Part shown: one piece after another, positions 20,310-45,982 of the stretch
Position numbering within the stretch: the first letter of the stretch is position 1
How the letters are laid out: each line of letters starts with the position of its first letter
Source of the DNA: Thermoanaerobaculia bacterium
GTDB lineage: Bacteria; Acidobacteriota; Thermoanaerobaculia; UBA5066
DNA: 64,000 nucleotides
Assembly (NCBI GenBank): GCA_038245905.1
Contig: JBBRRY010000015.1
Span: 19,361-83,360, forward strand
Direction: 5' to 3'
Translations under genes and position numbers: made by a program
Notes under the pieces: model-generated
Told to the model about the DNA's origin: nothing
What the model saw: only the letters and a program-made list of their open reading frames with translations
Databases searched by the model: none

Positions 20310-22066
20310 GGCGCGATCATCGCCTCCCACACGGCGCGCGACATTCTCTTCGCCGCCTCGTAAACGCGCGCGCGCCCCTCCTCGTTCTTCCCGAAGTCGT
20401 TCGCGAGGAGGACGAGGACGTACTCACGTCCGTCCGGCAGGCGGACGATCCCCGCGTCGTGCTGGACGGAGGAGATCGACCCCGTCTTGTGGGCGACGAT
20501 GGCGCCCGACTGCGGGTGGAGGCCGGCGGGGATCTCCTCGTTAAACGTCTGTCCTGCGAGGATCTCCCAGGCCTTCGATTTCGCGGCGGCGGAAAGCTTT
20601 GGCGTCCGGACGGCGGCCTCCATGACCGCGCCCATGCCGGCCGCGTCCGTCTCGTTGTTGAGACCCTTGTCGAACGCCTTCGAGTCTTCGACGCAGCGCC
20701 GGACGTGGACGGTCGGCGCGCCGAGTGCGTCGGCGAGCTTCTGGACGTTCTCGGGCGCGACGAGCGAGAGGAGAATGTTCGTCGCGAGGTTGGACGAGCG
20801 GACGATCATCTCGGTCGCAAGGAACTCGACCGTGGCCGTCTTCCCGAGGTGCGCCACGGTAGGGCCGTCGTTGTCCTCGAGGCCGATCGAGAAGAGCGAA
20901 CCGTCGACGAGGCTCTTGAACTCGTTCTTCACGGGCAGCTCGTCGGTCAGCCGAAGGCTTCCCGCGTCTACGCGGCGGAGCACCTCGAGGAGGACGGGCG
21001 TTTTCATCGTTGAGGCGGCGTGCATGACCAGGGAGGGATCCTTTGAAAGGGAAAGACCGCTGGCGAGATCCTTGAACCAGATGCCGAAGCGCGCCCCGCT
21101 CCCGTCGGCGATCGAGTCGAGCGTGCGCTGCAGGGCGCGCACTTTCGTCACGCTGAGACGCGGCCCCTCTTCACCATCTAAGGAATTTCTCTTCAATCTC
21201 CTCGCATAACGAAACAGAGGCTTCAGGAACGGGCTGTCGAACGGCGTGATCTGGACGCCAGGGACGTTGTGCCTTGTGGACTGAAGGACCGTTCCGTCGC
21301 CGATCCACATCGCCTCGTGGTCGATCTTGTCCGGCGTCCCGAAGAAGAGGAGGTCGCCGGGCTGGAGCTTCTCGAACGCGACGGGGACGAGCTGCGGGTC
21401 CTGAAACGCTTGTTCGGAGCTGTTCCTCTTCAGCGTGACGCCGTGCTCCGAGAAGATCCGCGCCATCAGGCCGGAGCAGTCGAACCCGAGGGGCGTCGTC
21501 CCGCCCCACGTGTAGGGCGCGCCGAGGAAGCGCCTGCCGAAGGAGATCCAGGAAGAGGGGGAGGAGAGAGGGGAAGAAGAGGGAGCTTCTTTGAAGGGTA
21601 AGAAGGAGACGTCGCACGCGGCGATGTAACCGCTGCGCCCGTCCGGCAGGACGACCCGCACCCACGAATACGGGTCCCCCTCTTTACCTTCAAAGAAATC
21701 CGAAAAACCCAGGGTTGCTCCAACCGGGGCCGTGAGAAGCGGCTTCTGCTTTGTGAACGAAGGTGCCGCGTATACGTGGGCGAAGTTGGACGTCACGCGC
21801 GCGACCTTCGCTCCCGCCGCCGGCGGCGCGTCGCCCCGGCGGAGTGCCCGCTCGGGGATCCACGCAACCTCGCCCGCGGCCGTCCGTACCTTCGCGAAGC
21901 CGGCGGCGTCTTCGAGGACGGTCACGCGGTCGCCTAGGATCGCCTGGTCGTCCACGCTCGACGTCTCGTCCGGCCTCACGAAGAGGTCCTCGACGGCGGT
22001 GACGACGACCGCCGTTTTCGCCGGAGAGAGGGAAAAGAGGAGGAAGGCTGCCGCAAACGTGCGCAT
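20306..22066 (-). CDS. SH3-NlpC/P60 (YkfC-like) peptidase fused to a class A beta-lactamase-fold serine hydrolase
   Basis: Signal peptide, two SH3b-like domains, PYTWGG..GFDCSG and catalytic H (DHEAM); C-terminal domain with STMK, SSN and HKTG. Confidence 0.9.
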   Translation of the reverse strand: MRTFAAAFLLFSLSPAKTAVVVTAVEDLFVRPDETSSVDDQAILGDRVTVLEDAAGFAKVRTAAGEVAWIPERALRRGDAPPAAGAKVARVTSNFAHVYAAPSFTKQKPLLTAPVGATLGFSDFFEGKEGDPYSWVRVVLPDGRSGYIAACDVSFLPFKEAPSSSPLSSPSSWISFGRRFLGAPYTWGGTTPLGFDCSGLMARIFSEHGVTLKRNSSEQAFQDPQLVPVAFEKLQPGDLLFFGTPDKIDHEAMWIGDGTVLQSTRHNVPGVQITPFDSPFLKPLFRYARRLKRNSLDGEEGPRLSVTKVRALQRTLDSIADGSGARFGIWFKDLASGLSLSKDPSLVMHAASTMKTPVLLEVLRRVDAGSLRLTDELPVKNEFKSLVDGSLFSIGLEDNDGPTVAHLGKTATVEFLATEMIVRSSNLATNILLSLVAPENVQKLADALGAPTVHVRRCVEDSKAFDKGLNNETDAAGMGAVMEAAVRTPKLSAAAKSKAWEILAGQTFNEEIPAGLHPQSGAIVAHKTGSISSVQHDAGIVRLPDGREYVLVLLANDFGKNEEGRARVYEAAKRMSRAVWEAMIAP

Positions 22067-22091
22067 CCCGGGATTCCACCATAATCCGGCC

Positions 22092-23243
22092 ATGACGCAG
22101 CCTCCTTTCCCCTCCCTCTCCCGCCGTGAACTCATTTTCTCGTCCGCTGCCGCCGCCGCGGCTTCCGCGCTGCCCGAGGCCCTGCTCGCGGAGGCTCCTT
22201 CGGGTCCGTCCCCTTCGTCGCCCTCTCTCTCCTACCGCGCTCTTCCCTTGAAGCTCGCACACACGTGGACGATCGCGCGCGGTTCTTCGGACACGAAGAC
22301 GAACGGTCTCCTGTCGCTCTCGGGCGAAGGCGTGACGGGATACGGCGAGGCCGCCGCGAACAAGCGCTGGAACCAGAGTTTCGAGACGTCGGAGGCGGCG
22401 TTCGCGAAGGTGAAGGCGGCCGTCGCGGGGCTTTCGCCCTGGGAGCACCTGACGTGGCTCGAGCGTGCCGAGAAAGAGGCCGGGCCCGACAGCGAAGTCG
22501 TCGCCGCGCTCGACCTCGCGCTATGGGACTGGAAGGGCAAGAGGCTGAACCGTCCGGTTCACGAGCTTCTTGGAATCCCGAAGGGCCGCATGTCGATCAC
22601 GACATTCTCGATCGGGATCGACACCGCGGAGGTCATGAAGCAGAAGGTCCTGGAGGCCGCGGCGTTTCCGAGGTTGAAGATCAAGATCGGCCTCCCGAAC
22701 GACGAGGAGAACATCGCGGCGATCCGGTCCGTGACCGACAAGCCCATCACCGTGGACGCGAACGAGGGCTGGACGAGCGTGGACGAGGCGAAGAAGAAGA
22801 TCGCGTGGCTGAACGGCGTCAAACCCCTCTTCCTCGAGCAGCCCATGCCCGCGGCGATGGACGGCGAGATGGTGAAGCTCAAGGGCCTCGCGACGTTTCC
22901 GATCCTGGGCGACGAGGGGGTGCTGCATGCGTCCGACGTGGCCGCCAAGGCCGGGCTGTTCGACGGCGTCGTCCTGAAGCTCGCAAAGTCGGGCGGCATC
23001 ACCCGTGTCTACGAGATGGCGGCCGTCGCCCGCGCCCACGGCCTCAAGCTGATGCTCGGCTGCATGATCGAGTCGTCGCTCGGCATCGCGGCGGGCGTCG
23101 CCGTGGGTCCGCTCTTCGACTGGCTCGACATCGACGGCAATCTCCTCCTGGCGTCAGACCCGTTCAAGGGCCTCTCGATCGCGAGCGGCCGGTGGGCGCT
23201 GCCCGAGGGACCCGGCCTCGGCGTCGTTTTCGCGGGCGTCTAG
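22092..23243 (+). CDS. L-Ala-D/L-Glu dipeptide epimerase (enolase superfamily) with Tat signal
   Basis: SRRELIF Tat motif; KIK, VDANEGW, EQP, DE, KLAK.GG, GCMIE and DIDG motifs. Confidence 0.9.
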   Translation: MTQPPFPSLSRRELIFSSAAAAAASALPEALLAEAPSGPSPSSPSLSYRALPLKLAHTWTIARGSSDTKTNGLLSLSGEGVTGYGEAAANKRWNQSFETSEAAFAKVKAAVAGLSPWEHLTWLERAEKEAGPDSEVVAALDLALWDWKGKRLNRPVHELLGIPKGRMSITTFSIGIDTAEVMKQKVLEAAAFPRLKIKIGLPNDEENIAAIRSVTDKPITVDANEGWTSVDEAKKKIAWLNGVKPLFLEQPMPAAMDGEMVKLKGLATFPILGDEGVLHASDVAAKAGLFDGVVLKLAKSGGITRVYEMAAVARAHGLKLMLGCMIESSLGIAAGVAVGPLFDWLDIDGNLLLASDPFKGLSIASGRWALPEGPGLGVVFAGV

Positions 23244-23257
23244 CGCCTGTCAGGACG

Positions 23258-24133
23258 TCAGGTCCGAGGCACGAGTGCGATCTTCGGGCGCTCGCCCGAG
23301 CGGGTGAGCCCGCGCGAGCGCAGAAGGCGGTGGTCCGCGCGTGCGATCGTCTTCTCGAGTGTCTCGCCGTCTTCGCGCGCGGCCCAGCCAAGAGAAAAAG
23401 GCACGAGAAGCTCGCGTTCGGCCATGAACGTCAGACGCTCGCTCATCTTCTCGGTTGCCGGTGCATCGGCCCCGTCGAGAAGCAGCAGGAACTCGTCGCC
23501 CCCCATCCGCACCGTGGATTCCTCGGCGCGCGAGGCTCGCATGAGGAAGCGCGCGACCCGGTTGAGCACGGCGTCGCCCGCCTGGTGCCCAAATTCGTCG
23601 TTGTAATGCTTGAAGTGGTCGATGTCGACCATGACGCACCCCCACGAGCCGCCCGCGTCCCCGTGACGCGCGACGAACTCGGTGAGGTAGCGGCGGTTCC
23701 AACAGCCCGTGAGCGGGTCGCGAAGGGTCTGGTCCAGGAGACGGTCCTCGAGCTGTTTTCGGTCCGTGATGTCGATGAGGATGCCCTGGAGGTAGACCTC
23801 CGTCGTCTCGGGATCGACGCAGCGGTACGCGGTGTCGATAACGGTCCGGATCTCGCCGTCCCTGCGCCGGATCTGAAATTCGAAGTCGCGCACGGCTCCG
23901 TCGCGCTCGAGGACGAGCAATTCCACCTCGCGCCGTGACGGGTCGACGAGATAGTCGGCACTCGCATGCTGCCGCGCTTCCTCGAGAGACGCGAAGCCCA
24001 GCATCTCGAGAAATGCCGGGTTGCCGTCGACGATTCTCCCCGCCGCGTCGGTGACGTAGATACCCTCACGCAGGTCGCGTACGAATCGGCGCAACGCCTC
24101 AGCGTCGTCGAGACGGGAGAACCGGCTTGGCAT
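23258..24133 (-). CDS. PAS-GGDEF diguanylate cyclase
   Basis: PAS domain ending DITDRK, DPLTG, DIDHFK..ND.FGH..GD, intact GGDEF. Confidence 0.93.
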   Translation of the reverse strand: MPSRFSRLDDAEALRRFVRDLREGIYVTDAAGRIVDGNPAFLEMLGFASLEEARQHASADYLVDPSRREVELLVLERDGAVRDFEFQIRRRDGEIRTVIDTAYRCVDPETTEVYLQGILIDITDRKQLEDRLLDQTLRDPLTGCWNRRYLTEFVARHGDAGGSWGCVMVDIDHFKHYNDEFGHQAGDAVLNRVARFLMRASRAEESTVRMGGDEFLLLLDGADAPATEKMSERLTFMAERELLVPFSLGWAAREDGETLEKTIARADHRLLRSRGLTRSGERPKIALVPRT

Positions 24134-24173
24134 GGTGGGGTGGGATCCTATAACGAACGCTTGGGGCGGTTTG

Positions 24174-25769
24174 TCAAGGCGTGGTCGAAGCCGAATGCCC
24201 GTTCAGTTTCTCCGCGAGGGCGAGACCGCGTCTCATGATTTCGTTCCACGGGAAGAGGGCGCCGGGGTCGTTCTTGCGGTCCGGGGCGATGTGCTGATGC
24301 CCGGCGATCCACGGCGACTCGAGCTCGAACATCGCCGTGAGAACGCCCACGAGCCGGACGACGGTCTCGATTTGCGCGGGCGTGAACGGATACCGGTTTC
24401 CGTCCCCCGTGATCTCGACGCCGACGGACGTGCGGTTCACGGCCATCCGCCCGTGCAGGAGAGACGCGCCCGCGTGCCACGCCCGATGCTCGAGCGAGAC
24501 GAACTGCACGAGGCGGCCATCGCGTTCGACGAGGAAGTGCGAAGAGACCCTGCTCTCGGGTTTCTGGAAGAGCTCGATGCACTCTTCGTCCGTGTCCTGC
24601 GCGGTGTGGTGGAGGACGAGGGCCGAGATCGGCTCGATCTTCCACGGCATGTATCCGTCCCACCAGGAGTTCGGCATCGGGATGAGGCAGGCGTCCGTCT
24701 CGTCCCCGCCGGCGGCCCGCCAGAGGTCCCAGAAGCGGCGGTCCCCGTCCCGGAAGACGCGGTCGAGGTGCGGCGCGCCTGGGTTCGCGCGGGCCTCGGC
24801 GAGCGTCGTCTCCGCGCGGGGCACGGGCGGCACGAGGACGGGGGGAAGAAAAGGCTCGACGACAGGCGGAAGGTCCGGCAGCGAGGCGGACCAGTCGTTC
24901 ACGATCCCTGCGGCGATATCGCCCATCGCGCGGATGGCGGTGGTCGCGCTTCCCTTCGCGTCGGGGATGCGGTCGGCAAAGGCGACCAGGACGAACCGGC
25001 CCTTCTTCGTCGTGAGGATGCCCGAGTCGTTCCGAACGCCTCCGTAGCTGCCCGTCTTGCCGGCCCACGACGTCCCGCTCTCGTGCAGGAGAAGCCGGGG
25101 CAGGCGGTCGTGCGTGTGCTGCGTCGCAAGGAGCTTCGCGAGAAGGCGATCGCCCGCCGGACCCGTGAGCGTGCGCGTCGCGACGCGCCTGTAGAACTCC
25201 GCCGTGTCCTCGGGCGTCATGCTCCCAAGGGGCGGCCATTTCGGCGGCTCCTGTCCTCGACTCGGGATACGGCCGACGAGCCGGATTCCCGGCAGGCCGA
25301 GCGCGGCCATGCGGGTGTTCACGGCTTCGGCGCCGAAGAGGTCGATGAAGCGCTCGGCCGCCGTGTTGTCGGAGATCGCGATCATAAGCTGCAGGAGATC
25401 GCGATTCGTGGGCGTGAGACCCGGATCGAATTCGTCCAGCATCCCGGAGCCGGCGGCCACGTTCTTCGCGGTCAGCCTCCAGCGATCCGTCAGGTCGAAG
25501 CGGCCCTCGCGCTCGAGGGCGACGGCCTCGGCGAGGAGAGCGATCTTGATGACGCTTGCGCCTTCGAAGTTGTCCGTGGCGTTCAGCTCCAGGCGTCTCC
25601 CGCTCTCGACGTGGAGCGCGACGATTCCCATGCGCGCCCCGCTGCCCGCCGCGAGCTTCGCGACGCGGCGGGCGAGGCCCGCGTCCGGAGGTGACACGCG
25701 CAGCGAAGGCGGAAGAGTCGCGCATGAAGAAAAAAGAAGCAGCCCGGCGACGGGGAGGAGGCGCCTCAT
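24174..25769 (-). CDS. Lipoprotein: beta-lactamase-fold serine hydrolase fused to N-acetylmuramoyl-L-alanine amidase (Amidase_2/AmpD-like)
   Basis: Lipobox-like LFSSC; SVIK, SDN and KTG; then LVLHHT, VSSHF, RAWHAG, GVEI and GH..IAP.RK.DPG. Confidence 0.9.
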   Translation of the reverse strand: MRRLLPVAGLLLFSSCATLPPSLRVSPPDAGLARRVAKLAAGSGARMGIVALHVESGRRLELNATDNFEGASVIKIALLAEAVALEREGRFDLTDRWRLTAKNVAAGSGMLDEFDPGLTPTNRDLLQLMIAISDNTAAERFIDLFGAEAVNTRMAALGLPGIRLVGRIPSRGQEPPKWPPLGSMTPEDTAEFYRRVATRTLTGPAGDRLLAKLLATQHTHDRLPRLLLHESGTSWAGKTGSYGGVRNDSGILTTKKGRFVLVAFADRIPDAKGSATTAIRAMGDIAAGIVNDWSASLPDLPPVVEPFLPPVLVPPVPRAETTLAEARANPGAPHLDRVFRDGDRRFWDLWRAAGGDETDACLIPMPNSWWDGYMPWKIEPISALVLHHTAQDTDEECIELFQKPESRVSSHFLVERDGRLVQFVSLEHRAWHAGASLLHGRMAVNRTSVGVEITGDGNRYPFTPAQIETVVRLVGVLTAMFELESPWIAGHQHIAPDRKNDPGALFPWNEIMRRGLALAEKLNGHSASTTP

Positions 25770-25794
25770 CGTTCTCCCGTTCTAACATGGACGA

Positions 25795-26913
25795 ATCGAG
25801 AAAGAGCAGCGCCTTGCCGCCCTCGACATGTTTCGCGGCCTGACGGTTGTCGGGATGGTGTTCGTCAACAACCCGGGCGATTGGGGGCATCTCTACTGGC
25901 CATTCGACCATGCGGAGTGGCACGGCTGGACGCCGACGGACCTCATTTTTCCGTGGTTCCTGTTCATCGTCGGCGTCGCGGGCGTCTTCTCGCTCGAGAA
26001 GCGCTTGGCACAAGGGGCAGACCGCCTCGACCTCGCGCGCCATGCCTTTCGTCGAGGGATGACGATCGTCTTCGTCGGCTGGCTGATGGCGTTCTACCCG
26101 TTCCTGCCGTTTCTCGAGCGCCTCTCGCGCCTCAGGATCCCCGGCGTCCTTCCGCGAATCGGCGTTGCGTTCGTTTTTGGAACGTGGATCGTTCTCGCGG
26201 CCTGGAAGCGGCGCATTTTCGGGGTCGCAGCGGCGGTCGTGGCGCTTCTCGCCCTGCATACGTGGATTCTCCTCGGGACGGGCTGCGACCTCACGCCTAC
26301 CGGAAATGCCCAGCGCGCCGTGGACCTCGCGGTTCTCAAGGGTCATCTCTGGAAGAACGTGCAGGGCTGGGACCCCGAAGGGATCGTCTCGACGCTGACG
26401 GCGATCGCGACGATGCTCACCGGCACGCTGACCGGCTTTCTCCTGAGGGGCGGGGCGGGCGTGAAGGCGAAGGTCGCGCGTCTCATGACGATCGGGGCTG
26501 CCGCCACCGCAGCGGGACTCCTGTGGGGCCGGTTTCTCCCGATCAACAAGAACCTCTGGACGGCGTCGTACGTCGTTTTCACGTCGGGCGCAGCCCTTCT
26601 CGCGGTCGGCGTCTGCGTCCTCGCGATCGACGTCCTCGGGTGGAGAAAGCCCTTCGGCGTCTTCTTCACGTTCGGCACGAACCCGCTCCTCGTCTTCGTG
26701 CTCTCGGGCTTCCTTGCGAAGACGATGGGCCTGATCAAGTGGACGGACGTCGCCGGAAAGGCGATCACGCTTCACACGTGGCTCTACAGAACGTGGTTTT
26801 CCTGGATCGCGGACCCCACGTTGCGCTCGCACGCGTTTGCGCTCGTGACGATCCTCTTTTGGTGGGTGGTCCTGCGCGCCTTCGAGAAAAAGGGCTGGTT
26901 CTGGAAGATCTGA
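25795..26913 (+). CDS. Heparan-alpha-glucosaminide N-acetyltransferase-like membrane protein (HGSNAT/NagX/DUF5009)
   Basis: RLAALDMFRG, VNNPG, HAEWHG.TPTDL.FP.FLFIVG, DPEG and PINKNLWT.SYV. First in-frame ATG is at 25828; ATC at 25795 proposed as start. Confidence 0.88.
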   Translation: MEKEQRLAALDMFRGLTVVGMVFVNNPGDWGHLYWPFDHAEWHGWTPTDLIFPWFLFIVGVAGVFSLEKRLAQGADRLDLARHAFRRGMTIVFVGWLMAFYPFLPFLERLSRLRIPGVLPRIGVAFVFGTWIVLAAWKRRIFGVAAAVVALLALHTWILLGTGCDLTPTGNAQRAVDLAVLKGHLWKNVQGWDPEGIVSTLTAIATMLTGTLTGFLLRGGAGVKAKVARLMTIGAAATAAGLLWGRFLPINKNLWTASYVVFTSGAALLAVGVCVLAIDVLGWRKPFGVFFTFGTNPLLVFVLSGFLAKTMGLIKWTDVAGKAITLHTWLYRTWFSWIADPTLRSHAFALVTILFWWVVLRAFEKKGWFWKI

Positions 26914-26914
26914 G

Positions 26915-27859
26915 TCAGTCCGTGTCGAGGATGCGGCGCGGGACGTTCGAGGCCATCCGGCGGGCCGATTCGGGCGGGAGGCCGAGCGATGCGGCCCGGC
27001 TGACGCAGTCGTCGAGGAGCGCCGTCGAGCCCGCGAGCGCGCCCGACGCGTTGCGCGCGGCCCCGCCCTTCACGGTCAGCGTCTCCCCCCAGACCGCGTA
27101 GTCGCCGTCGGCCAGGCCCGCCGCGGGCATCGCGTCGCTGATGAGGGCGACGCGGTCTTCTCCCTTCACCTTCAGGACGAGTCGCAGCATCTCCGGCGCG
27201 AGGTGCTGCCCGTCCGCGATGACGTCGACCGTCACGCCGTCCGTCACGAGGCCCCAGCCGATCGGGCCGACATCGCGGTGGTGGAGCGGCTTCATCGCGT
27301 TGCCGAAATGCGTCATGTGCCGCGCACCGGCCGCGAGCGCGGCGTCGAGCGTGGAGGCGTCGGCCTCCGTGTGGCCGATCGAGACGACGAACCCACGCTT
27401 CACGAACTCCTTCACGACCGCGATGCCTCCGGGGATCTCGGGCGCGAGCGTCGTCATCCCGCGCCCCGGAGCGCTCGATGCGATCTCGAAAAACGCGCCG
27501 AGCGCGAGGGCGTCTCTCCCGTCGAGGAAATCCTCGCGGTGGAGAGCACCGCAGCGCGCGCGGGAGACGAACGGCCCCTCGAAGTGAATGCCGAGCGGCA
27601 GCGCGCCCTTCCCGTCCCCCGGCCGGCGCGACCGAATCCACGCGGAAAGCCGCGCCACGGCAACGGCCATCTCCGGCAGCGGCAGAGGGATGAGCGTAGG
27701 CAGGAAGCCAGAGACGCCGCGGGACGAGAGCCCGAACGCGAGCCTGTCCATGTCGGCGGCCGACGCCGTGACGACGTCGATGCCGAAAGCGCCGTGGATG
27801 TGGAGGTCGATGAAAGCAGGGGACGCAGAGGAAGACGAATTCTTTGTTCCGGAGCTCAC
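26915..27859 (-). CDS. nagA: N-acetylglucosamine-6-phosphate deacetylase
   Basis: FIDLHIHG, GIHFEGPF, TLAPE, GHT, THFGNAM, ADG.H, SDAM and LAGS. Confidence 0.92.
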   Translation of the reverse strand: MSSGTKNSSSSASPAFIDLHIHGAFGIDVVTASAADMDRLAFGLSSRGVSGFLPTLIPLPLPEMAVAVARLSAWIRSRRPGDGKGALPLGIHFEGPFVSRARCGALHREDFLDGRDALALGAFFEIASSAPGRGMTTLAPEIPGGIAVVKEFVKRGFVVSIGHTEADASTLDAALAAGARHMTHFGNAMKPLHHRDVGPIGWGLVTDGVTVDVIADGQHLAPEMLRLVLKVKGEDRVALISDAMPAAGLADGDYAVWGETLTVKGGAARNASGALAGSTALLDDCVSRAASLGLPPESARRMASNVPRRILDTD

Positions 27860-28713
27860 GGGAGGTTTCGCTCCGGAGGCGAGGTCAATGCGGCGGCCAC
27901 GTTTGAAGATTGCTTAGAAAGGTAATCGTCCGCGGCCTCGCACGAAAGTCCCCATTTCGCCGAGACGAGCGCGGTGGGCAGCCGCCACCCACACCTTCTA
28001 AGAAAATCTTCCGCGTTCTCTTCGGACGTGCCCGCAATGTCCCGGACGATCCTCACGGCGCGCGTCTTCAGTTTCTCGTTCGTCGGCTGCATCGCGACCA
28101 TCTCGTCCCGGTAGACGAGGCCGCGCCTCGCCATGACGGCGGTCGAAAGCATGTTGAGGGTGATCTTCTGCGCGGTTCCGGCCTTCAGGCGGCTGGACCC
28201 CTCGAGGACTTCCTTTCCCGTGTCGAGAAGGATGGCGATGTCGGCCAGCTTCTCGATCGGCCCGCCCGGGCGGCACACGACGGCGATCGTGAGGGCGCCC
28301 GCGCTCTTCGCGTGCTCCAGCGCGCCGATCACATAAAGTGTCACCCCGCTCGCGGCGATGCCGACGACGGCGTCCTTCCCCGTGAGGCCGGCGATGGAGA
28401 GGTCTTTCCCGCCGGCATCGGCGTCGTCCTCCGCGCCCTCCACGGCCTCGAACATCGCCGCCCGCCCGCCCGCGAGGAGCGCGACGACGAGCGAAGGATC
28501 CGTCCCGAAGGTGGGCGGAAGCTCCGCGGCGTCCAACGCGCCGAGGCGGCCGCTCGTCCCCGCTCCGGTATAGAACCACCGGCCGCCCGTCTCGAGCCGC
28601 TCGGCGATCGCGTCGGCCGCGCGCGCGATCGCGGGAAGGGCGGCCGTGAGCGCGACCTCGACCGCCCGATCGGCTTCGTGGAGACGCGTGACGAGATCGA
28701 GCGAATCGCTCAT
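27856..28713 (-). CDS. murQ: N-acetylmuramic acid 6-phosphate etherase
   Basis: GAGTSGRLG.LDAAE.PPTFG, EGAED and GSSRLKAGTAQK. Confidence 0.93.
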   Translation of the reverse strand: MSDSLDLVTRLHEADRAVEVALTAALPAIARAADAIAERLETGGRWFYTGAGTSGRLGALDAAELPPTFGTDPSLVVALLAGGRAAMFEAVEGAEDDADAGGKDLSIAGLTGKDAVVGIAASGVTLYVIGALEHAKSAGALTIAVVCRPGGPIEKLADIAILLDTGKEVLEGSSRLKAGTAQKITLNMLSTAVMARRGLVYRDEMVAMQPTNEKLKTRAVRIVRDIAGTSEENAEDFLRRCGWRLPTALVSAKWGLSCEAADDYLSKQSSNVAAALTSPPERNLP

Positions 28714-29651
28714 GAAGGACTCGTTTCGGTCGTGAGGGCGAGGCGGATCGCGCCCATTTCCGGGGAATGGGCGGCGGGACCGACGCGCGCGAGCGGGGCC
28801 ACGCGCCGGATCGCTTCGGCGAGAGGGTCCGTGACGAACGCGCCGGCCGCGAAGACGCCGCCGATGGTCGCGACGGGAAACGAGGCGCTCTCGAGGCCCA
28901 GCTTTTTCACGACCGTCACGACGTCGAGCGCGAGATCGTGTCCGGCCTCCGCGAGGATGCGCCGCGCCTCGCCATCGCCCGCGCGGGCCGCCGCGAGAAC
29001 GACCGGAAAATACGCCGCGATGTCGGCGGCGCCGTCCTCGGAGCGGTAGATTCTCTCGAGCAGCTCGGTCAAAGACGAGACACCGCCCGTGGAGAAGAGA
29101 AGCTCCTTGATCGCCGTCGGGGGACCGCGGCCGTCGAGCTCGCGAACGACGGCGACGAGGCCCTGCCGGGCGATGGCATAACCGCCCCCTTCGTCGCTCA
29201 GGAGGGGTCCGAATCCGCCGGCGCGCGCCGTGGCGCCGCCTTCTCCCTGCCCGAAGGCGATGGCTCCCGTGCCTGCGATGACCACGACCGCAGGCGCGTC
29301 GACGCGATCGGGAGCCGCGCCCGAGAGAGCGATCCGCGCGTCGCTCGTGAGGAGGACGCGGCTCTTCACGAAGACCGACTCGAGTGCCTTGAGGAGGGGC
29401 TGCCGGTCCCGGATCGAGTCGACGCCGGCAAGGCCCACGACGACGGCTTCGGGGGGCACATCCCCGAGATCCGCCGCGAGAAGAGCGTCCGATGCAGCTT
29501 CCTGGACGGATTCCACGACCCGGGGGAGGGGGCGGGTGGCCACGTTCCCGGGGCCGGACGCGCCCCGGCCCAGCGGCGCGAGGTCCTTTCGAGCGACGAC
29601 GGCGCGCGTACGGGTCCCCCCGCCGTCAATTCCGATGAAGAACGGCCCCAC
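28710..29651 (-). CDS. BadF/BadG/BcrA/BcrD family N-acetylglucosamine/MurNAc kinase
   Basis: GIDGGGT, IAGTG and RAGG.G.L.SDEG.G; operon with murQ and nagA. Confidence 0.88.
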   Translation of the reverse strand: MGPFFIGIDGGGTRTRAVVARKDLAPLGRGASGPGNVATRPLPRVVESVQEAASDALLAADLGDVPPEAVVVGLAGVDSIRDRQPLLKALESVFVKSRVLLTSDARIALSGAAPDRVDAPAVVVIAGTGAIAFGQGEGGATARAGGFGPLLSDEGGGYAIARQGLVAVVRELDGRGPPTAIKELLFSTGGVSSLTELLERIYRSEDGAADIAAYFPVVLAAARAGDGEARRILAEAGHDLALDVVTVVKKLGLESASFPVATIGGVFAAGAFVTDPLAEAIRRVAPLARVGPAAHSPEMGAIRLALTTETSPS

Positions 29652-29726
29652 GGAGCCAGCTTAGCAAGGGCGGCCAGATTCACCCGCATCAGTTCCGGCG
29701 ATCCGCGGGCGCGTTAGATTCACCCC

Positions 29727-31043
29727 ATGACGTTCGACACCGACTGGAAGACCCGCTACTCCCGAAAGGTCGCGACGGCCGAAGACGCCGTACGTGCCAT
29801 CCTCCCGGGCCGCCGCATCCTGATCGGCTCCGGCGCCGGCGAACCGGGGCGCCTCGTCGAGGCCCTCGTGTCGCACGCCACGCAGCTCCGCGGAAACGAA
29901 ATCGTCCACCTCATGACGCTCGGGGCCGCCCCTTACGTCGCCCCGGGACTCGAGGACCGCTTCCGCCACATGGCGTTCTTCATCGGGTCGAACGTGCGGG
30001 GCGCCGTCCAGGAAGGACGCGCCGACTTCCTGCCCGTCTTCCTGTCCGAGATCCCGCAGCTCATCACGAGCGGGCGTCTCGGAGTGCATGCGGCGCTCGT
30101 ACAGGTGAGTCCGCCCGACCACCACGGATTCGTAAGCCTCGGGGTTTCCGTCGACATCGTGCGGGGTGCCGTGGACACGGCCGACATCGTCCTCGCCGAG
30201 GTCAATCCGAACATGCCGCGGACGCTCGGCGACTCTTTCCTCCACGTGGACCGCATCGCGCACCTCGTGCCCGTGGACGACCCGCTGCACGAGCTCAAAC
30301 CCGAGCCGCTCGACGAAGTCTGCCGGCAGATCGGGCATCACGCCGCGCAGCTGATCCAGGACGGGTCGACTCTGCAGATGGGAATCGGGCGCATCCCGGA
30401 TGCGGTCATGAGCGGCCTCCGGGAGCGAAGCGACCTCGGGATCCACACGGAGATGCTGTCCGACGGCGTCATGGCGCTCGCGAAGGCCGGCGTGATCACG
30501 GGCCGGAAGAAGACGCTCCTCCCGGGCAAGATCGTCACGTCCTTCATCATGGGCACGCGCGCTCTCTACGACTGGGTGGACGACAACCCCGTCGTCGAAA
30601 TGCGCCCTTCGAGCTTCACGAACGACTCGTTCCAGATCGCGCGAAACGACAAGATGGTCGCGCTGAACTCGGCCCTTGCCGTTGACCTCACCGGCCAGGT
30701 CGCGGCCGACTCGATTGGCGGGCGCTTCTTCTCGGGCATCGGGGGCCAGGTGGACTTCATCCGGGGCGCCGCGCGCAGCAAAGGCGGCAAGCCCATCATC
30801 GCCCTGCCGTCGACCGCCAAGAACGGCGCGATCAGCCGCATCGTCCCGGTGCTCGAGGAAGGGGCCGGTGTCGTGACGAGCCGCGGAGACATTCACTACG
30901 TCGTCACGGAGTACGGGGCCGCGGATCTGTGGGGCAAGAACATCCGCCAGAGAACGGAAGCGCTCATCGGCATCGCGCACCCGGATTTCCGCGCCGACCT
31001 CCTGGCGAGCGCGAAGGCCCGGAAATACGTATTCGCCGGCTGA
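29727..31043 (+). CDS. Acetyl-CoA hydrolase/4-hydroxybutyrate CoA-transferase family
   Basis: LQMGIG.IP, LGIHTEM, SGIGGQVDF.RGA and VVTEYG.A.L.GK. Confidence 0.93.
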   Translation: MTFDTDWKTRYSRKVATAEDAVRAILPGRRILIGSGAGEPGRLVEALVSHATQLRGNEIVHLMTLGAAPYVAPGLEDRFRHMAFFIGSNVRGAVQEGRADFLPVFLSEIPQLITSGRLGVHAALVQVSPPDHHGFVSLGVSVDIVRGAVDTADIVLAEVNPNMPRTLGDSFLHVDRIAHLVPVDDPLHELKPEPLDEVCRQIGHHAAQLIQDGSTLQMGIGRIPDAVMSGLRERSDLGIHTEMLSDGVMALAKAGVITGRKKTLLPGKIVTSFIMGTRALYDWVDDNPVVEMRPSSFTNDSFQIARNDKMVALNSALAVDLTGQVAADSIGGRFFSGIGGQVDFIRGAARSKGGKPIIALPSTAKNGAISRIVPVLEEGAGVVTSRGDIHYVVTEYGAADLWGKNIRQRTEALIGIAHPDFRADLLASAKARKYVFAG

Positions 31044-31062
31044 CCCGCGCTAACCTCGCGGC

Positions 31063-32985
31063 GTGCGCCGCCGGCTCCCGACGTTTCTCGCGCCTCTCCT
31101 GCTCCTTCTCGCCGCCTTCGCCCTGAAGACGGCGCTGCTCGAGCATTTCGACACGCATCCGCTCCTCCAGCCCGCGGGAGACATGGACAGCGGCGTTTAT
31201 GCGCGGCTCGCGGCCGACGTCGCACGCGGCGACTTGCTCCTCCGCGGGCCGGGTCCCGTCCCGTATTTCGTCTCGCCGCTCTACATCTATTTCCTCGCAG
31301 CGGTTCACGCGCTCTCGGCGGGCTCGCTGTTCGCGGCGAAAGTCGTCCAGATCGTCCTTGGGACGGCCGTCGTTGGGCTCGTCTGGGCGATGACGCGCCG
31401 GCTCTTCGACGACCGCGCCGCGCTCGTCGCGGGAATCCTCTACGCGCTCACCGGCATCGTGTCGTTCCACGAGATTCTGATCTTGCAGGCCGCGCTGGAT
31501 CCCTTCCTGACCGCGCTCTTTCTTTTCCTGCTGGCGGTTGCACTCAGTCCAGACCAGCCGAAGACTTCTTTGAAGGTGAATGAGGAGAAGGCAGCAGCAT
31601 GGGCGGCGGCCGGGGCCGCGCTGGGCCTTTTCGCGTTGAATCGCCCCAACGTTCTCCCATTCGCGGCGGTCGTCGCAGTCGGACTCGTCGTGCGGGGCAT
31701 CGGCGCACGCGGCGAGCGTCCTCTCTCTCCTCCTTTCAAAGAGAATCCTCTTCGAACGCTGGGATTTGCCGGGGCCTTCCTCGCAGGCACCGCCGCGATC
31801 GTGGCGCTGCCCCTCGCGCGCAATCTCATCGTCTCCGGCGAGCCCGTCCTGATCTCCTCGCACGGCGGCCTGAACCTCCTCGTCGGTAACGGGCCCGGCG
31901 CGAACGGGGTATACCGATGGCTGGACGGCATCACGCCGTCTGTCTCCGGCCAGGCCGCGGACGCGAAAAAGCTCGCGGAACGTGAGACGGGACGGCCGCT
32001 CACGACGCGCGAGGTGTCGTCGTTCTTCGCGCGGCGCGCATTTTCCTGGATGGCCGAACAGCCCCAGGCGGCGGTACGCCTCTTCGCCCGGAAAATCTGG
32101 TACGTCTTCTCGAACGACGAGCTGTCGCTCAATTTCAGCGCGACGTGGTACCGCCGCGAGAGCGTCCTCCTCCGGCTTCTCGCCGTGGGGCCGTGGCTGC
32201 TGGTGCCGCTCGGGATGGCGGGCCTCGTTCTCGCCGTCCTCGGCGCAGGGAGATTCCCGGGGCGTGTCGCGGGGATCTGGGCTTCCTTCGTGCCGGTCTA
32301 CGCGCTCCTCGTCGCCGCGTTCTTCGTGGCGACGCGCTATCGGCTGCCCCTCGCAGTCCCACTCGCGGCCGGAGCGGGCGGGGCGGTGTCGATCGTGTGG
32401 ACGTCGCTCCTGAAGCGAGACGGGAAGCGCGACCGGAAGCCAGTTCTCGTAGCCGCATGCGTCGCCCTGCCGTGCCTGCTCCTCGCGCTCTGGCCGACCG
32501 GCGTCGACGACGGCTCGTCGGAAGAAGAAATGCAGTGGGTGCTCGCCCTGATCGAGACGGGCGATGTCTCCGAGAGCACGACGCGCCTCCACACGCTCGC
32601 GAAAACGTATCCGATGCCGGGCGTCCTGTGGTTCCGGGCGGGCCAGGCCTGGGCCGCTGCCGGCCGCCTCGACGACGCGATCTCCGCTCTCGAGCGGGCG
32701 CGCGCGATCGACCTCGAGCAGAAGGAGACGAGAGGCGTGCTCGCGGCCGCACGCGAGAGGCGGGGAATGGAGCGCGCGACGGCGGGAAAGATGTCGGACG
32801 CGGCGGCGGACATGGAGGAGGCCGCGCGCCTCGACCCGGGCAATCCGGCCATCCGGGTGAACCTCGCCGCGATTCTGGCGGAGCAGGGAGATAGTGCGCG
32901 GGCACGCTCTCTCGCGTCGGAGGCGCTCGCGCTTCGGCCCGGCTACGACAAGGCCGAGGCGCTCCTCCGGGCCCTTCCCAAATGA
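31063..32985 (+). CDS. GT39/PMT-like membrane glycosyltransferase with C-terminal TPRs
   Basis: GDMD...Y, PLYIYFL, multiple TMs, GGLNL.VGN, RYRLP and C-terminal TPR helices. Confidence 0.8.
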   Translation: MRRRLPTFLAPLLLLLAAFALKTALLEHFDTHPLLQPAGDMDSGVYARLAADVARGDLLLRGPGPVPYFVSPLYIYFLAAVHALSAGSLFAAKVVQIVLGTAVVGLVWAMTRRLFDDRAALVAGILYALTGIVSFHEILILQAALDPFLTALFLFLLAVALSPDQPKTSLKVNEEKAAAWAAAGAALGLFALNRPNVLPFAAVVAVGLVVRGIGARGERPLSPPFKENPLRTLGFAGAFLAGTAAIVALPLARNLIVSGEPVLISSHGGLNLLVGNGPGANGVYRWLDGITPSVSGQAADAKKLAERETGRPLTTREVSSFFARRAFSWMAEQPQAAVRLFARKIWYVFSNDELSLNFSATWYRRESVLLRLLAVGPWLLVPLGMAGLVLAVLGAGRFPGRVAGIWASFVPVYALLVAAFFVATRYRLPLAVPLAAGAGGAVSIVWTSLLKRDGKRDRKPVLVAACVALPCLLLALWPTGVDDGSSEEEMQWVLALIETGDVSESTTRLHTLAKTYPMPGVLWFRAGQAWAAAGRLDDAISALERARAIDLEQKETRGVLAAARERRGMERATAGKMSDAAADMEEAARLDPGNPAIRVNLAAILAEQGDSARARSLASEALALRPGYDKAEALLRALPK

Positions 32986-32987
32986 AA

Positions 32988-33011
32988 CGGCCCGGCGTTT
33001 CCGCCGGGCCG
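32988..33011 (-). terminator. Intrinsic terminator downstream of the TonB-dependent receptor
   Basis: CGGCCCGGCG-tttc-CGCCGGGCCG stem followed by TTTCATTT on the minus strand; lies between convergent genes. Confidence 0.75.
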
Positions 33012-33033
33012 GGAGGAATCGGGAGGGGCGCTT

Positions 33034-35820: not shown

Positions 35821-35833
35821 AATCAATAATTTA
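35821..35833 (+). promoter_or_regulatory. IHF consensus site in an AT-rich divergent promoter region
   Basis: AATCAATAATTTA is an exact WATCAA-N4-TTR match. Confidence 0.5.
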
Positions 35834-35953
35834 ACGTGAACCACGGGGGTTTTTACCACGAAAGGGCAATCGTGATCGAGTGTCCAATGGCCGTCCAATT
35901 CATTGGAGCCACGGCTTCGCCGCTCCTTCGCGGATAATCGGGCGGAACCTCAC

Positions 35954-37387
35954 TTGAGCGACTCGACCAGAATCCTTAACGGCACGTACGAACTTCTGGG
36001 AAAAGTGCGCGCGGGCGGCATGGGGGCGGTCTGGAAGGCGCGTCACGTGAAGCTCGGGACGACCTGCGTCGTGAAGCTGCTGCACGAGTCGCTCATCGAC
36101 GATCCCTCGGCGCAGGAGCGCTTCAAGCGCGAGGCTCAGACCGCCCTGAAAGTGAACCACCCGAACGTCGTGCGTTTCTTCGACTACGCGATGGAGCCGG
36201 ACGGAACGGCCGTTCTCGTCATGGAGTACATCCCGGGAGTCGATGTCTCCGAGCTCATGAAGTCCACGGGGCGGCCCCCGCTCCCCGTGGCGCTCGAGAT
36301 CGCGCGTCAGACGCTTGCCGCGCTCGGAGCGCTCCACGCAATGGGAATCGTCCATCGCGACGTCTCGCCGGACAACCTCATGCTCACGGTCGACAAGGAC
36401 GGCACGCTCCTTGTGAAGCTCGTCGACCTCGGCCTCGCGAAGGAGATGGACCAGAAGAGCCTGACCGAGACTGGCATGTTCATGGGCAAGCTCAAGTACG
36501 GCTCGCCCGAGCAGCTCGGTCCCGCCCGGAAGGCGGGGATAGACCTCAGGAGCGACCTCTACGGCTTCTCGGTCGTGCTCTATCAGATCCTGACGGGGAC
36601 GCCGCCCTTCGAGGCGGACACGCCTGGAGGCTGGGTCTACGCGCACCTGTCCGAGGCACCGCGGCCGTTCGCCGAGACCGATCCTCAAGGACGCATCCCC
36701 GGGGACGTCTGCATCGCCGTGATGCGCGGCCTGGAAAAAGACCGCGCCCAGCGGTTTCAGTCGGCTGCGGATTACGCGAAGGCGCTCGAGCCCGTGCGGA
36801 GGCGACTCGGAGACGCCGGTCTCGCCGAGACGCTCGGCACGATCCGCACGCTGGCCGAGGCACGGAAGGCGCGCTCCGTCGAGGCGGTCCGCTTCGGCTC
36901 GAAGGTCGCGCGCGATCCCTCTTCAGGCGCGGGGTACGGGCCGTCCTGGTCCGCAGGGCGCCTGAGGTGGGGTGTTGCCGCCGGCGTTGCGGCGGTTGGA
37001 CTCGCCTTGTTGCTCTTCTGGATGCGGCGCGGCAATCCACAGGAGCCAAGGCTCGCGCCGTCTGCCTCGCCCGGCACGCCACGCGTGTCGCCCGCCGCGC
37101 GTGCGGTGCGGACCGTCCTGGCGAAGGGCGGGATCTCGTTCGTCGCTCTCCCGAATGCCGACATCCGCGTCTTTGCCGCGGCGACATCGGAGGAAGTCCC
37201 CCTCCCCGGACACACCACGCCGCTGTATGTCTCGCTCTCGCCGGGTATCTATCGCGTCGAGCTGACGTTCCCGGGCGCGCGGCCGGCAACCCGGCTCGTG
37301 ACCGTGGAGCCGGGGCGCGCGATCGCGGTGCGCGTCGAAGACCCGAAGTTCGACGTCGAGAAGCTCGTGGCCGCCTATGTACCTTAG
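35954..37387 (+). CDS. Membrane Ser/Thr protein kinase with C-terminal PEGA-like domain
   Basis: GGMGAV, VVK, RFKREA, HRDVSPDN, DLG (for DFG), YGSPEQ, one TM helix. Start uncertain (TTG 35954 or 35903). Confidence 0.9.
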   Translation: MSDSTRILNGTYELLGKVRAGGMGAVWKARHVKLGTTCVVKLLHESLIDDPSAQERFKREAQTALKVNHPNVVRFFDYAMEPDGTAVLVMEYIPGVDVSELMKSTGRPPLPVALEIARQTLAALGALHAMGIVHRDVSPDNLMLTVDKDGTLLVKLVDLGLAKEMDQKSLTETGMFMGKLKYGSPEQLGPARKAGIDLRSDLYGFSVVLYQILTGTPPFEADTPGGWVYAHLSEAPRPFAETDPQGRIPGDVCIAVMRGLEKDRAQRFQSAADYAKALEPVRRRLGDAGLAETLGTIRTLAEARKARSVEAVRFGSKVARDPSSGAGYGPSWSAGRLRWGVAAGVAAVGLALLLFWMRRGNPQEPRLAPSASPGTPRVSPAARAVRTVLAKGGISFVALPNADIRVFAAATSEEVPLPGHTTPLYVSLSPGIYRVELTFPGARPATRLVTVEPGRAIAVRVEDPKFDVEKLVAAYVP

Positions 37388-38237
37388 GCCAGCGCTTCTC
37401 CTCGCCCTCTGCCTCCTGGCTGGGCGACTCTTCGCGCAGGACGCGGCGGATTCCTATCAAGCGGGGCTCGACGCGTTTGCAAGGAGGGACTTCGGCGCGG
37501 CGGCGAATGCGTTTCGGCAGGCGATCCGGCGGGAGCCCGGCGAGCAGCGGCGGCTTCACATCAGCGGCACGTTCTTTCACGAGAACTACGTTCCGCACTT
37601 CTTTCTCGGGCTTTCGCTGAAAGAGCTGGGAGACGCTCCGGGGGCGCGCGCGGAGCTCGTGCTTTCCAGGAGCCAGGGCCTCGTCCCCCAGCACCCGGCC
37701 TACGGCCCGCGTCTTGCCGCCGCGCTCCTCGAGCTGGAGGCGAAGAGGTCCTCGTCGGCTCCTTTGCCCGCGAAGCCCGTCGCGATTCCGGCGACGGTGG
37801 TGACGACGACCGCGGCGACGCCGCGCCCGGGCCTCTCCGCCCCGCTCGGACCCGCCGCCGGCGTTCCGCCTCTTCCCGCCGCGTCGGGGGCTGAGACCGC
37901 GTTCCAACCCGAAGCGGCTCCCGTGTCGGAGACGCGGATCGTGCTTCGGAACGGCATCCGTTCCTTTTTCCGCGGCGACTACGATGGCTCGATCAAGACG
38001 CTCTCGGGTCTTTCCGACGCCGGCAACGAAACGGCGCGTCTCTTCACCGCGTACGCGATGGCGGGGTCCGTGCTCGCGGGCGGCCGGGAGGCGGGTCCGG
38101 AGCTGCCGCGCGCCCGCGCCCTGTTCGAAGGCTTGCCCGGCCGCACGCGGCCGAGGAAGCCGCCCGGCGTATCCGCGCGGATTCTGGAGGCGCTTGCCGC
38201 CCCGGCCGGCGGCCGCTCGGCCGATCGCTCCCCATGA
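37377..38237 (+). CDS. Secreted TPR-like protein with Pro/Ala/Thr linker
   Basis: Signal peptide; YQAGL.AF..RDF..A..AF..AI TPR-like helices; overlaps both neighbours. Confidence 0.7.
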   Translation: MYLRPALLLALCLLAGRLFAQDAADSYQAGLDAFARRDFGAAANAFRQAIRREPGEQRRLHISGTFFHENYVPHFFLGLSLKELGDAPGARAELVLSRSQGLVPQHPAYGPRLAAALLELEAKRSSSAPLPAKPVAIPATVVTTTAATPRPGLSAPLGPAAGVPPLPAASGAETAFQPEAAPVSETRIVLRNGIRSFFRGDYDGSIKTLSGLSDAGNETARLFTAYAMAGSVLAGGREAGPELPRARALFEGLPGRTRPRKPPGVSARILEALAAPAGGRSADRSP

Positions 38238-39835: not shown

Positions 39836-39843
39836 GGCTCGTT

Positions 39844-41199: not shown

Positions 41200-41208
41200 C
41201 CGGAGATG

Positions 41209-44198
<2,990 letters not shown>

Positions 44199-44232
44199 CG
44201 GCTACTTGCCCTGCACCTGCACCGCGGGGAGC

Positions 44233-45060: not shown

Positions 45061-45259
45061 GGTGGAACTCCTTTCGCTCGACAAGATGGCCCCGGCGCGC
45101 GCGCTGCGCAAGGGCCGCGCATGTGCGGCCCGCGCCGAAGGCTGGTCTGGGCGCGCCAGAGGCCGTTTTGGAGGCCTCGAAATTGACGCCGGTCACGGAA
45201 CGTTCTCTCGAGCAGGCGCCGTGAGAGAGAACCAGGCCCGTGAAGGGTCCGGTTCAGCG

Positions 45260-45982
45260 TTACGAGAAGGGCGACCTCCCCCTCCGAAGCGCCGCGACCG
45301 CGCCAAGGAGGATCGTGACTTCGCGCTTCGTCGGCTTTCCACGGCGCAGGAACGACTCGATCTCGAAGAGCACCTCTTTCGAGCGGCCTCGGTCGGGGTA
45401 GCCCGCAGAGGAAAGAACTTCTTTGAAAGAGATGAGGAGGCGGCGCACGTCTTTCGTGGCGGCTTGCGGTTCCTCGGGCTCCGACGTTCCGCGCTTTCGG
45501 CGTGGTGCTTCGAAGGGTGAAAGAAGAGCCAGCGCAATGGCCATGGACTGCGCGAGGTTGAGGGTCGGGAACTCGGGCCGCGTATCGATCCGGAGGCGTG
45601 CGTCGCAGAGTCGAAGCTCTTCGGTTGTCAGCCCTCCGCGCTCGGGGCCGAAGACGAGGGTGACGCGCTTGCCCCGTCGAAGAGAAGAGGAGATTTCTTT
45701 GAAAGTGGTGGGAGGCGGCAGCCCACGCGAGACGCGCCCGCGCAGCGACGTGAGGGCGACCACGTCGTCGGCTCGCGAGGTGAGGTCCTCCCAGTTTGCG
45801 AGGGTCTTCACCTTTCTAAGCAAATCTTCGGCGCCCGACGCGAAAGAAATGGCATCCGGGTGCGCCGGGTCGGTGCGCGGTCCGAGCAAAGAAATCTCCG
45901 CCCCGAAGTTCTTCGCGACGCGCGCCGCCGCCCCGATGTTGCCGGGGTTGAAGGTTCTCACGAGGACGACGCGAAGCGCCAT
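45260..45982 (-). CDS. TrmJ/LasT (TrmH/SPOUT) RNA methyltransferase
   Basis: VVLV....PGNIGAAAR..KNFG, LVFGPE..GLT.EEL and LNLAQS. Confidence 0.9.
   Translation of the reverse strand: MALRVVLVRTFNPGNIGAAARVAKNFGAEISLLGPRTDPAHPDAISFASGAEDLLRKVKTLANWEDLTSRADDVVALTSLRGRVSRGLPPPTTFKEISSSLRRGKRVTLVFGPERGGLTTEELRLCDARLRIDTRPEFPTLNLAQSMAIALALLSPFEAPRRKRGTSEPEEPQAATKDVRRLLISFKEVLSSAGYPDRGRSKEVLFEIESFLRRGKPTKREVTILLGAVAALRRGRSPFS

Follow-up and report, generated by a model that had tools for sequence, protein, structure and literature searches.

Facing pairs of a CTTWGAARG word are overprinted on genes across one lineage of Thermoanaerobaculia

A 64,000-nucleotide stretch of a Thermoanaerobaculia genome from the Acidobacteriota (assembly GCA_038245905.1, contig JBBRRY010000015.1, forward-strand positions 19,361 to 83,360; hereafter the window, cited by its own numbering) carries, inside unrelated protein-coding genes, repeated copies of an AT-rich DNA word with the core CTTWGAARG. 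We find that the word is enriched throughout the source genome, that its copies, or arms, follow a facing-pair rule, that they arose by substitution and keep their aligned positions among relatives, that the two arms of a pair are maintained independently of each other, and that the word is restricted to one lineage and has decayed in some relatives. The reading we favor, at a probability of about 0.4, is that a lineage-specific factor recognizes the sequence of every arm on its own but requires a head-to-head pair; this factor would probably be a DNA-binding protein that brackets or bridges the spacer between them.

Two forms of the word were counted, the exact core CTTWGAARG (a 9-mer) and the longer 11-mer TTCTTWGAARG. 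Within the window, whose base composition is 66-72% GC, exact cores start at 21041+, 21589+, 21687-, 27913+, 27994-, 31568+, 31733-, 45421+, 45697+ and 45812-. In 100 dinucleotide shuffles of the window the mean was 0.45 cores (standard deviation 0.70, maximum 3), and 0 of the 100 reached ten. An earlier examination of the letters alone (the sequence-only reading) had listed ten sites by eye and estimated that fewer than one would be expected; all ten (10/10) are exact cores. Its five pairs of a plus copy followed by a minus copy were recovered as well, with measured core-start spacings of 133, 98, 81, 165 and 115 bp, as was the variant it had placed at 21174-21189 on the minus strand, which has the core CTTAGATGG and pairs with 21041+. 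Read site by site, the word runs from a purine-rich tail through (A/T)TTT and the core to G(T/G)GAAGAGGG; the arm, purine-rich and strand-asymmetric, has a core of about 26 bp and reaches at most about 45 bp overall. Rfam covariance models gave no match at gathering score in the window. The arms are listed here with scores from the position matrix described below:

21033-21058, plus strand: arm with core CTTTGAAAG at 21041-21049; matrix score 22.8; partner 21165-21190; in the linker before the beta-lactamase domain, read antisense by the gene.
21165-21190, minus strand: variant arm with core CTTAGATGG; matrix score 25.4; partner 21033-21058 at 133 bp; sense in the gene.
21581-21606, plus strand: arm with core CTTTGAAGG at 21589-21597; score 29.6; in the linker from SH3 to NlpC/P60.
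21678-21703, minus strand: arm with core at 21687-21695; score 32.8; partner 21581-21606 at 98 bp.
27905-27930, plus strand: arm with core CTTAGAAAG at 27913-27921; score 27.2; in the C-terminal tail of the MurQ-like gene.
27985-28010, minus strand: arm with core CTTAGAAGG at 27994-28002; score 33.2; partner 27905-27930 at 81 bp.
31560-31585, plus strand: arm with core CTTTGAAGG at 31568-31576; score 34.6; in a variable loop of the PMT_2/TPR gene.
31724-31749, minus strand: arm with core at 31733-31741; score 28.1; partner 31560-31585 at 165 bp.
45413-45438, plus strand: arm with exact core CTTTGAAAG at 45421-45429; in the C-terminal part of the TrmJ-like gene; not faced by another arm within 300 bp.
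45500-45525, plus strand: degenerate copy TGCTTCGAAGG, match at 45506-45516, two mismatches to the 11-mer.
45689-45714, plus strand: arm with exact core CTTTGAAAG at 45697-45705; inside the SpoU domain of the TrmJ-like gene.
45803-45828, minus strand: arm with exact core CTTAGAAAG at 45812-45820; partner 45689-45714 at 115 bp.

The host genes had been named from the letters as an NlpC fusion, murQ, a GT39 gene and trmJ, and domain scans match these names:

20306-22135, minus strand: SH3 + NlpC/P60 + beta-lactamase fusion, 609 aa, four arms inside.
27856-28713, minus strand: SIS-domain MurQ-like protein, 285 aa, two arms inside.
31063-32985, plus strand: PMT_2 (GT39-like) + TPR membrane protein, 640 aa, two arms inside.
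45260-45982, minus strand: SpoU/TrmJ-like methylase, 240 aa (from MALRVV...), three arms and one degenerate copy.

Arms in these genes are read in three frames and lie in inter-domain linkers, a variable loop and a C-terminal tail, the exception being trmJ, where an arm lies inside the SpoU domain. A further variant proposed in the sequence-only reading, intergenic near 9838 on the plus strand (CTTAGATTA), is not convincing; it lies in an AT-rich, promoter-like gap, is absent among the 11-mer matches with at most two mismatches, and was rejected as a family member. The gap itself (9820-9880, ...CTTGGCCAT) is just upstream of a minus-strand gene start and resembles an ordinary promoter region.

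The source genome (G000; a 3.80-Mb assembly in 113 contigs, 67.8% GC, 96.4% complete) also carries more copies than expected: it holds 309 exact cores, against a base-composition estimate of about 32. A position matrix built from exact cores is informative from about -19 to +17, and its signal declines gradually in both directions, without a sharp end. At a matrix score of at least 18, G000 has 441 arms, or about one per 8.6 kb. The unit of motif organization is the facing pair. Neighboring arms no more than 400 bp apart face each other in 117 cases, stand back to back in 3 and lie in tandem in 20, and the facing spacings span 33-369 bp, with 70-130 bp commonest. Among the 207 arms left single at this threshold, a weak partner (score at least 8, 30-330 bp away) stands in the facing position for 78 and in the back-to-back position for only 5; their median best partner score is 2.7 in the facing position versus -13.3 in the back-to-back position. 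No periodicity was detected in 109 spacings, either at 10-11 bp (top power 4.5 versus a null 95% value of 7.05) or by codon (mod-3 counts 31/37/41). Gaps from pair to pair show mild short-range clustering only, with 14 gaps below 3 kb versus about 7 expected.

The enrichment exceeds what codon usage would produce. In 2631 genes called by GC3 (84% of the genome), the 9-mer occurs 102 times in sense and 100 times in antisense orientation, versus 9.6 and 11.1 in ten synonymous-codon shuffles within genes (about 10-fold); for the 11-mer the counts are 72 and 68 versus 2.0 and 2.0 (ten shuffles, about 35-fold). Although arms make up 0.35% of codons, 15.7% of all TTA codons lie in them, as do 6.0% of AGA and 6.2% of TCT codons, and they account for 227 of the 731 AT-rich islands of G000. 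An open, coding-like frame contains 242 of the 441 arms (112 sense, 130 antisense). Both arms fall within one called gene in 71 of the 117 pairs, evenly spread along gene length, and the other 46 pairs lie between diverging (15), co-directional (27) or converging (4) genes; the scarcity of pairs between converging genes and the even spread along genes indicate that the element is not a gene-end terminator. Start-like codons are two- to three-fold enriched downstream of arms, with 22 at 9-49 nt and 19 at 49-89 nt versus 4-13 in control windows. Two sites stand out by their context. At 2159-2320 of contig C69, three tandem arms with a 30-bp period lie at a gene junction, the last giving GGAGG before an ATG, and a facing arm lies just after the predicted signal peptide, so that the pair brackets the start codon and signal sequence. 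At 15804-16172 of contig C40, two facing pairs lie in the 3' portion of the gene that immediately precedes comEC (16529-18952), which may be a coincidence.

Orthologous DNA from the same genus, comprising 23 trmJ loci and 16-20 syntenic loci for each of the other three host genes, indicates how the arms came to be there. Every site of the window recurs at the same aligned place in genus relatives (16-23 species), and for the eight sites in window 20300-33000 the tally is 10 to 16 of 16 species per site. At the first trmJ site (arm 45803-45828), CTTAGAA is exact in 17 of 21 aligned orthologues while neighboring synonymous positions vary, and across the genus the arms are kept at synonymous positions through rare codons. 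Where the word is absent, as at the second trmJ site of genome G032 and at both MurQ arms of the sister-genus genome G072, protein length is unchanged, so the arms were written by substitution and not by insertion. The stretch that a pair encloses is host coding sequence, orthologous to that of relatives. Two NlpC sites carry the word in different reading frames from one species to another, with compensating indels nearby, such that P-F-K-E in one corresponds to P-S-K-K in another and F-L-E-G-E-E to I-S-S-N-G-K-E. Sites also turn over: an extra arm near 32070-32110 of the GT39-like gene, present in 8 of 16 genus members and not in G000, shows that sites are gained or lost within the genus, and the purine/pyrimidine tracts flanking arms gain and lose units between species. 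In a related population, contigs of two runs (X2 and X3) skip 31719-31751, an in-frame stretch of 33 bp that covers one whole arm; TCCTCT stands at both of its ends, so the loss fits replication slippage. Separately, the trmJ frames of four assemblies (G007, G033, G006 and G018) are broken, and the tblastn match resumes in another frame; in three of the four the break comes after about 57-66 codons, where the first arm lies or directly behind it. Such breaks could be homopolymer or indel errors in assemblies of few contigs, or real frameshifts at the T-run of the arm.

Together, these observations support a DNA-level code overprinted on genes, and the main claims of the sequence-only reading stand to that extent. 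The rare codons it saw being forced, an excess over a codon-preserving shuffle and a non-random orientation and spacing genome-wide are all found, and substitution origin, conserved rare-codon positions and frame differences between species bear out its DNA-level code. One of its suggestions, that of relic ends of a miniature element, is not supported: the interiors are host coding sequence, no insertion is seen relative to motif-free orthologues, no transposase lies within the scanned long-spaced pairs, and no RAYT gene was found. Of the points it proposed to check, the spacings show no helical periodicity, and the arms replace codons at unchanged protein length and are not lineage-specific insertions.

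The two arms of a pair behave as independent copies of one word. True partners form duplexes of -29.3 kcal/mol, versus -28.9 +/- 0.37 for shuffled partners, and agree at 20.91 of 43 positions, versus 20.80 +/- 0.29 for shuffled partners. In the MurQ pair of 18 species, 90% of cells can pair, and the covariation is no better than chance (114 of 500 shuffles reach its score); RNAalifold does not pair the MurQ arms with each other. Partners thus fit no better than strangers, and no hairpin-specific selection is seen.

The distribution of the word among relatives is graded. The counts below use the exact 11-mer, a pattern that a diverged word in other families would escape, and those for G019 and G024, on which no other result depends, come from genomes marked unpublished. 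By this word the element is confined to g1 and g35, and high copy numbers to g1:

Genus g1, including G000: 102-430 copies in 19 of 19 genomes.
Family, genus g1: 102-348 copies in 7 of 7 relatives; G000 has 224.
Family, sister genus g35: 52, 22, 18, 9, 9, 5 and 2 copies in seven genomes.
Family, eight other genera: 0-3 copies.
Other two families of the order: 0-3 copies in 12 genomes.
Class, 81 genomes in 49 genera: 142-348 copies in five g1 genomes including G000; all others near the reversed-pattern control.

The orthologous MurQ pair shows the same gradient at a single locus. It is intact in g1 and in the g35 genomes of high copy number, G116 and G122. Erosion is partial in G120 and G126, whereas in G118 and G079 most of the word has drifted towards GC. 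In 400 kb of G079, three arms score at least 18, versus about 46 predicted from the density in G000; one of the three is the orthologue of the GT39 arm of the window, and the exact 11-mer at MurQ is one of five in the whole G079 genome. Site integrity at the MurQ pair thus tracks genome-wide copy number, as expected if a trans-acting reader, or a drive, had weakened or been lost in some lineages. We take the gradient to point to a lineage-specific trans-acting reader, and this factor seems to have been lost in some sister species. The word was absent from 26 TrmJ loci (95 kb) of other families, and a de novo search of 400 kb of G079 yielded no equivalent word, its top AT-rich 10-mers deriving from a 150-bp tandem protein repeat. 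That coding repeat (peptide ...GTVFKIT...) forms long tandem arrays within large genes at about 51.7-60.7 kb and 237.9-239.1 kb of G079 contig C2; an unrelated short repeat, a GC-rich clamp around TCTCAATTATCAATTATAGA, recurs about seven times at about 70.5-79.5 kb and 368.8-369.6 kb of the same contig. Among viral contigs a 20-mer matched twice, both times in contigs of 33-37% GC, which we take as chance. The word can mark this uncultured lineage in metagenomes.

In the mechanism that we propose, each arm would act as a strand-asymmetric recognition word, made up of a purine-rich tail, (A/T)TTT-CTTWGAARG and then GTGAAGAGGG, and a trans-acting, lineage-specific factor would read it base by base, most likely as a DNA-binding protein on double-stranded DNA. 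The working unit would be two head-to-head arms with their G-rich ends inward, bracketing 30-300 bp of any sequence. About 200 such units would be spread over the chromosome, most of them in genes because the genome is about 85-90% coding, spelled out by point substitution at tolerant linkers, loops and tails and kept in place by purifying selection, or by a drive that still operates, both acting on the DNA word, with the encoded peptide as a passenger. Paired sites for a binding protein would fit these data because the arms are conserved singly, without arm-to-arm covariation. The reader is presumably a protein and would bind both arms at once; our guess for its action is local bridging or bracketing of DNA for chromosome organization or topology. 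If a dedicated factor does read the pairs, the arms impose a measurable cost on protein coding, since peptide changes can be forced (e.g., FKE to SKK). The word also accounts for odd low-complexity stretches and rare-codon clusters that might otherwise be mistaken for errors or functional motifs. More tentatively, we suggest that this is a new kind of chromosome-wide signal, in which a lineage-specific factor reads two long facing arms across a variable spacer of 30-300 bp, substitution has placed about 200 units in essential and ordinary genes alike, these units last as long as the genus does, and the arms erode to GC-rich codons once the factor is lost.

Several observations weigh against this reading. 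No reader was found among the start-proximal frames or the eight synteny-gap genes that were scanned. In the former, a search for autoregulation, the 60-residue starts of 41 of 53 start-proximal frames, most of them spurious, contained no DNA-binding candidate. In the latter, 55 G000 genes have no match in the 400-kb sample of G079, nine of them in the window; of these nine, eight were scanned, and six are metabolic, transport or outer-membrane genes and two belong to no Pfam family. The consensus arms are mutually complementary, at about -29 kcal/mol, so a stem would form in any transcript or single strand, selected or not, which keeps an RNA or single-stranded DNA reading alive. The core CTTAGAAAGG is also the exact complement of a 16S rRNA 3' region, CCTTTCTAAG, downstream of the anti-Shine-Dalgarno CCTCC, a match found post hoc that hints at an RNA-level link. 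The lack of 10-11 bp periodicity, a result of limited power, argues against a rigid short DNA loop. Finally, all genomes are metagenome bins, and the gene calls are crude enough to have missed trmJ. The sister-genus gradient nevertheless makes the identity of the reader tractable by gene-content comparison. Two window frames without a match in the syntenic G079 sample, at 37377-38237 (286 aa) and 41209-42267 (352 aa), are well-coding and have no Pfam family at E <= 1e-5.

Among other explanations, we consider it unlikely, though worth weighing, that the word accumulated by a drive like that of uptake sequences, in which uptake or recombination machinery prefers the word, biased transformation and gene conversion add copies, and selection removes those that damage proteins. 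Lineage specificity, overprinting by substitution, placement at poorly conserved residues and nearly equal orientations all recall the properties reported for uptake signal sequences (USS) and DNA uptake sequences (DUS) (PMC2817400). ComEC and DprA are present in G000, and a 100-fold variation in copy number among close relatives, with decay where numbers are low, looks as if a drive had stopped. However, USS and DUS work singly, whereas here the facing pair is the unit. The arms of G000 are also about seven times sparser than the word of Haemophilus influenzae, at about one per 1.2 kb. Nor does ComEC follow the motif: it is present in 28 of 31 family genomes regardless of motif count, is intact in G079 with its five copies, and has no match in G118 at 94% completeness; a loss of ComEC in step with loss of the motif was not seen. 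We find it slightly less plausible still that the pair is an RNA-level element, whose arms would form a long-range stem controlling processing (e.g., by RNase III), stability, translation or the termination of untranslated transcripts. The facing rule places a purine arm, Shine-Dalgarno-like and complementary to the 16S 3' tail, 5' of a pyrimidine arm in any transcript from either strand. The stem strength and the 16S complementarity described above speak for such an element, as do the start-like codons downstream of arms and the pair on C69 that brackets a start codon and signal peptide. The 16S 3' region of G017, the sole genus member with an assembled end, reads ...GGATCACCTCCTTTCTAAGAG / ...CACCTCCTTTCTAAGAG, and taking three bases out of this tail gives a sequence like the pyrimidine arm. 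Partner-specific complementarity and covariation are nonetheless missing, and in 52 embedded pairs the antisense stem is as stable as the sense stem (Wilcoxon p = 0.75). Among exact cores W is T in 39% and R is more often G than A. A T or C at W, like a G at R, makes the match to 16S rRNA weaker, and the A at +9 that would restore GGAGG occurs in only 7% of arms. These preferences and the equal antisense use count against the idea that selection maintains pairing with the ribosome. Gene ends show no concentration of pairs, converging genes seldom have one between them, and the window has no Rfam match. Rho is found in 29 of 31 family genomes, and the idea that the pairs replace it was rejected on that ground.

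Far less probable is a decayed element of the miniature inverted-repeat transposable element (MITE) or REPIN type, whose terminal inverted repeats, once mobile and inserted into genes, would now be fixed as the arms. Inverted doublets with a spacer do resemble REPINs (PMC3116915); tandem arrays of arms with a 30-bp period exist, the 33-bp in-frame indel covers one arm exactly, and the purine tracts beside arms gain and lose units. The interiors, however, are orthologous host coding sequence with no added length relative to word-free genomes, arm information fades without a sharp end, and the 33-bp indel between TCCTCT direct repeats fits slippage. Nor was machinery for mobility found: RAYT (Y1 transposase, PF01797) has no match in the 96.4%-complete G000, with a control search positive in 6 of 14 reference genomes, and the TnpB-type TNB domain (PF07282) has none in 31 family genomes, with the control positive in 8 of 14. 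Nine facing pairs lie 400-4000 bp apart, and the frames within four of them were scanned; these enclose ordinary genes, encoding NUDIX, glutamine synthetase (GlnA), bifunctional nuclease domain, ParA-like and ABC-transport proteins. A fifth pair lies on contig C73 and has no called gene inside. A transposon with arms as its ends was rejected, there being no transposase within the four scanned pairs. In G000, a crude k-mer test found no CRISPR array, and no small GIY-YIG nuclease of the Ssn type was found, the sole PF01541 match lying within a 614-aa frame. It is hardly credible, last, that the arms are the inverted repeats of intragenic invertons, between which a site-specific recombinase flips a segment and recodes the protein. 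They do flank short intragenic segments as inverted repeats, yet about 200 units in housekeeping genes are conserved across the genus, spacings are as short as 33 bp, and among the joints listed none switches strand at a pair (contigs of four runs, 20 kb, four pairs).

The paired-site reading is best placed beside known genome-wide signals. In the literature on Thermoanaerobaculia repeats, Acidobacteri* uptake sequences and coding inverted repeats, with supplementary files outside the scope, we found no description of this element. Its nearest relatives in character are the USS of Pasteurellaceae and the DUS of Neisseriaceae, which one study describes as lineage-specific, substitution-derived, placed at tolerant residues and present in both orientations, H. 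influenzae having 1,471 copies of its USS (PMC2817400). Like them, the present word is lineage-specific, repeated hundreds of times, read in several frames and both orientations, and conserved at orthologous places; unlike them, it is longer (26-45 bp) and sparser, has the facing pair with a 30-300 bp spacer as its unit, and obeys a neighbor orientation rule (117:3:20). REPINs are described as inverted doublets with a spacer, favored over singlets and vertically inherited over long periods (PMC3116915, PMC3337134). Doublets are favored here too (117 facing versus 3 back-to-back; 78 of 207 singlets with a weak facing partner). REPINs are extragenic, inserted, hairpin-folding and linked to RAYT, however, whereas 71 of 117 pairs here lie within one gene and arose by substitution, and neither arm-to-arm covariation nor a RAYT gene was found. 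The arms also differ from MITE ends in their gradual margins, host coding interiors and lack of a transposase within the scanned long-spaced pairs, and from Ssn nuclease repeats in that the sole GIY-YIG match of G000 lies in a 614-aa frame.

Rickettsia palindromic elements are likewise repeats read through as protein inside genes, but they are insertions that add a peptide, and the present arms add no length relative to word-free orthologues. HIP1 of cyanobacteria, Chi, KOPS and matS/SBS/NBS are genome-wide words or protein sites of 5-16 bp overprinted on genes. These are single, palindromic or replication-skewed, and we know of none with a facing-pair rule and a variable spacer; the present word shares their genome-wide overprinting and differs in its long arms, facing pairs and variable spacers. 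Long asymmetric sites that face each other tens of bp apart are found in the RTP-bound IRI/IRII terminators of Bacillus subtilis and in the inverted ORB boxes of archaeal origins, and an ORB box joins a dyad core to a one-sided G-string. The present arm resembles ORB boxes in architecture only, TTCTTAGAA plus GGTGAAGAGGG, and whereas a chromosome has one or a few of those sites, at its termini or origins, there are about 200 largely intragenic units here. If the proposed reading is correct, the facing arms would form a new class of genome-wide bacterial cis signal beside uptake sequences, Chi, KOPS and repetitive extragenic palindromic (REP) elements, one with an unusual grammar in which two arms face each other and the spacer is free.

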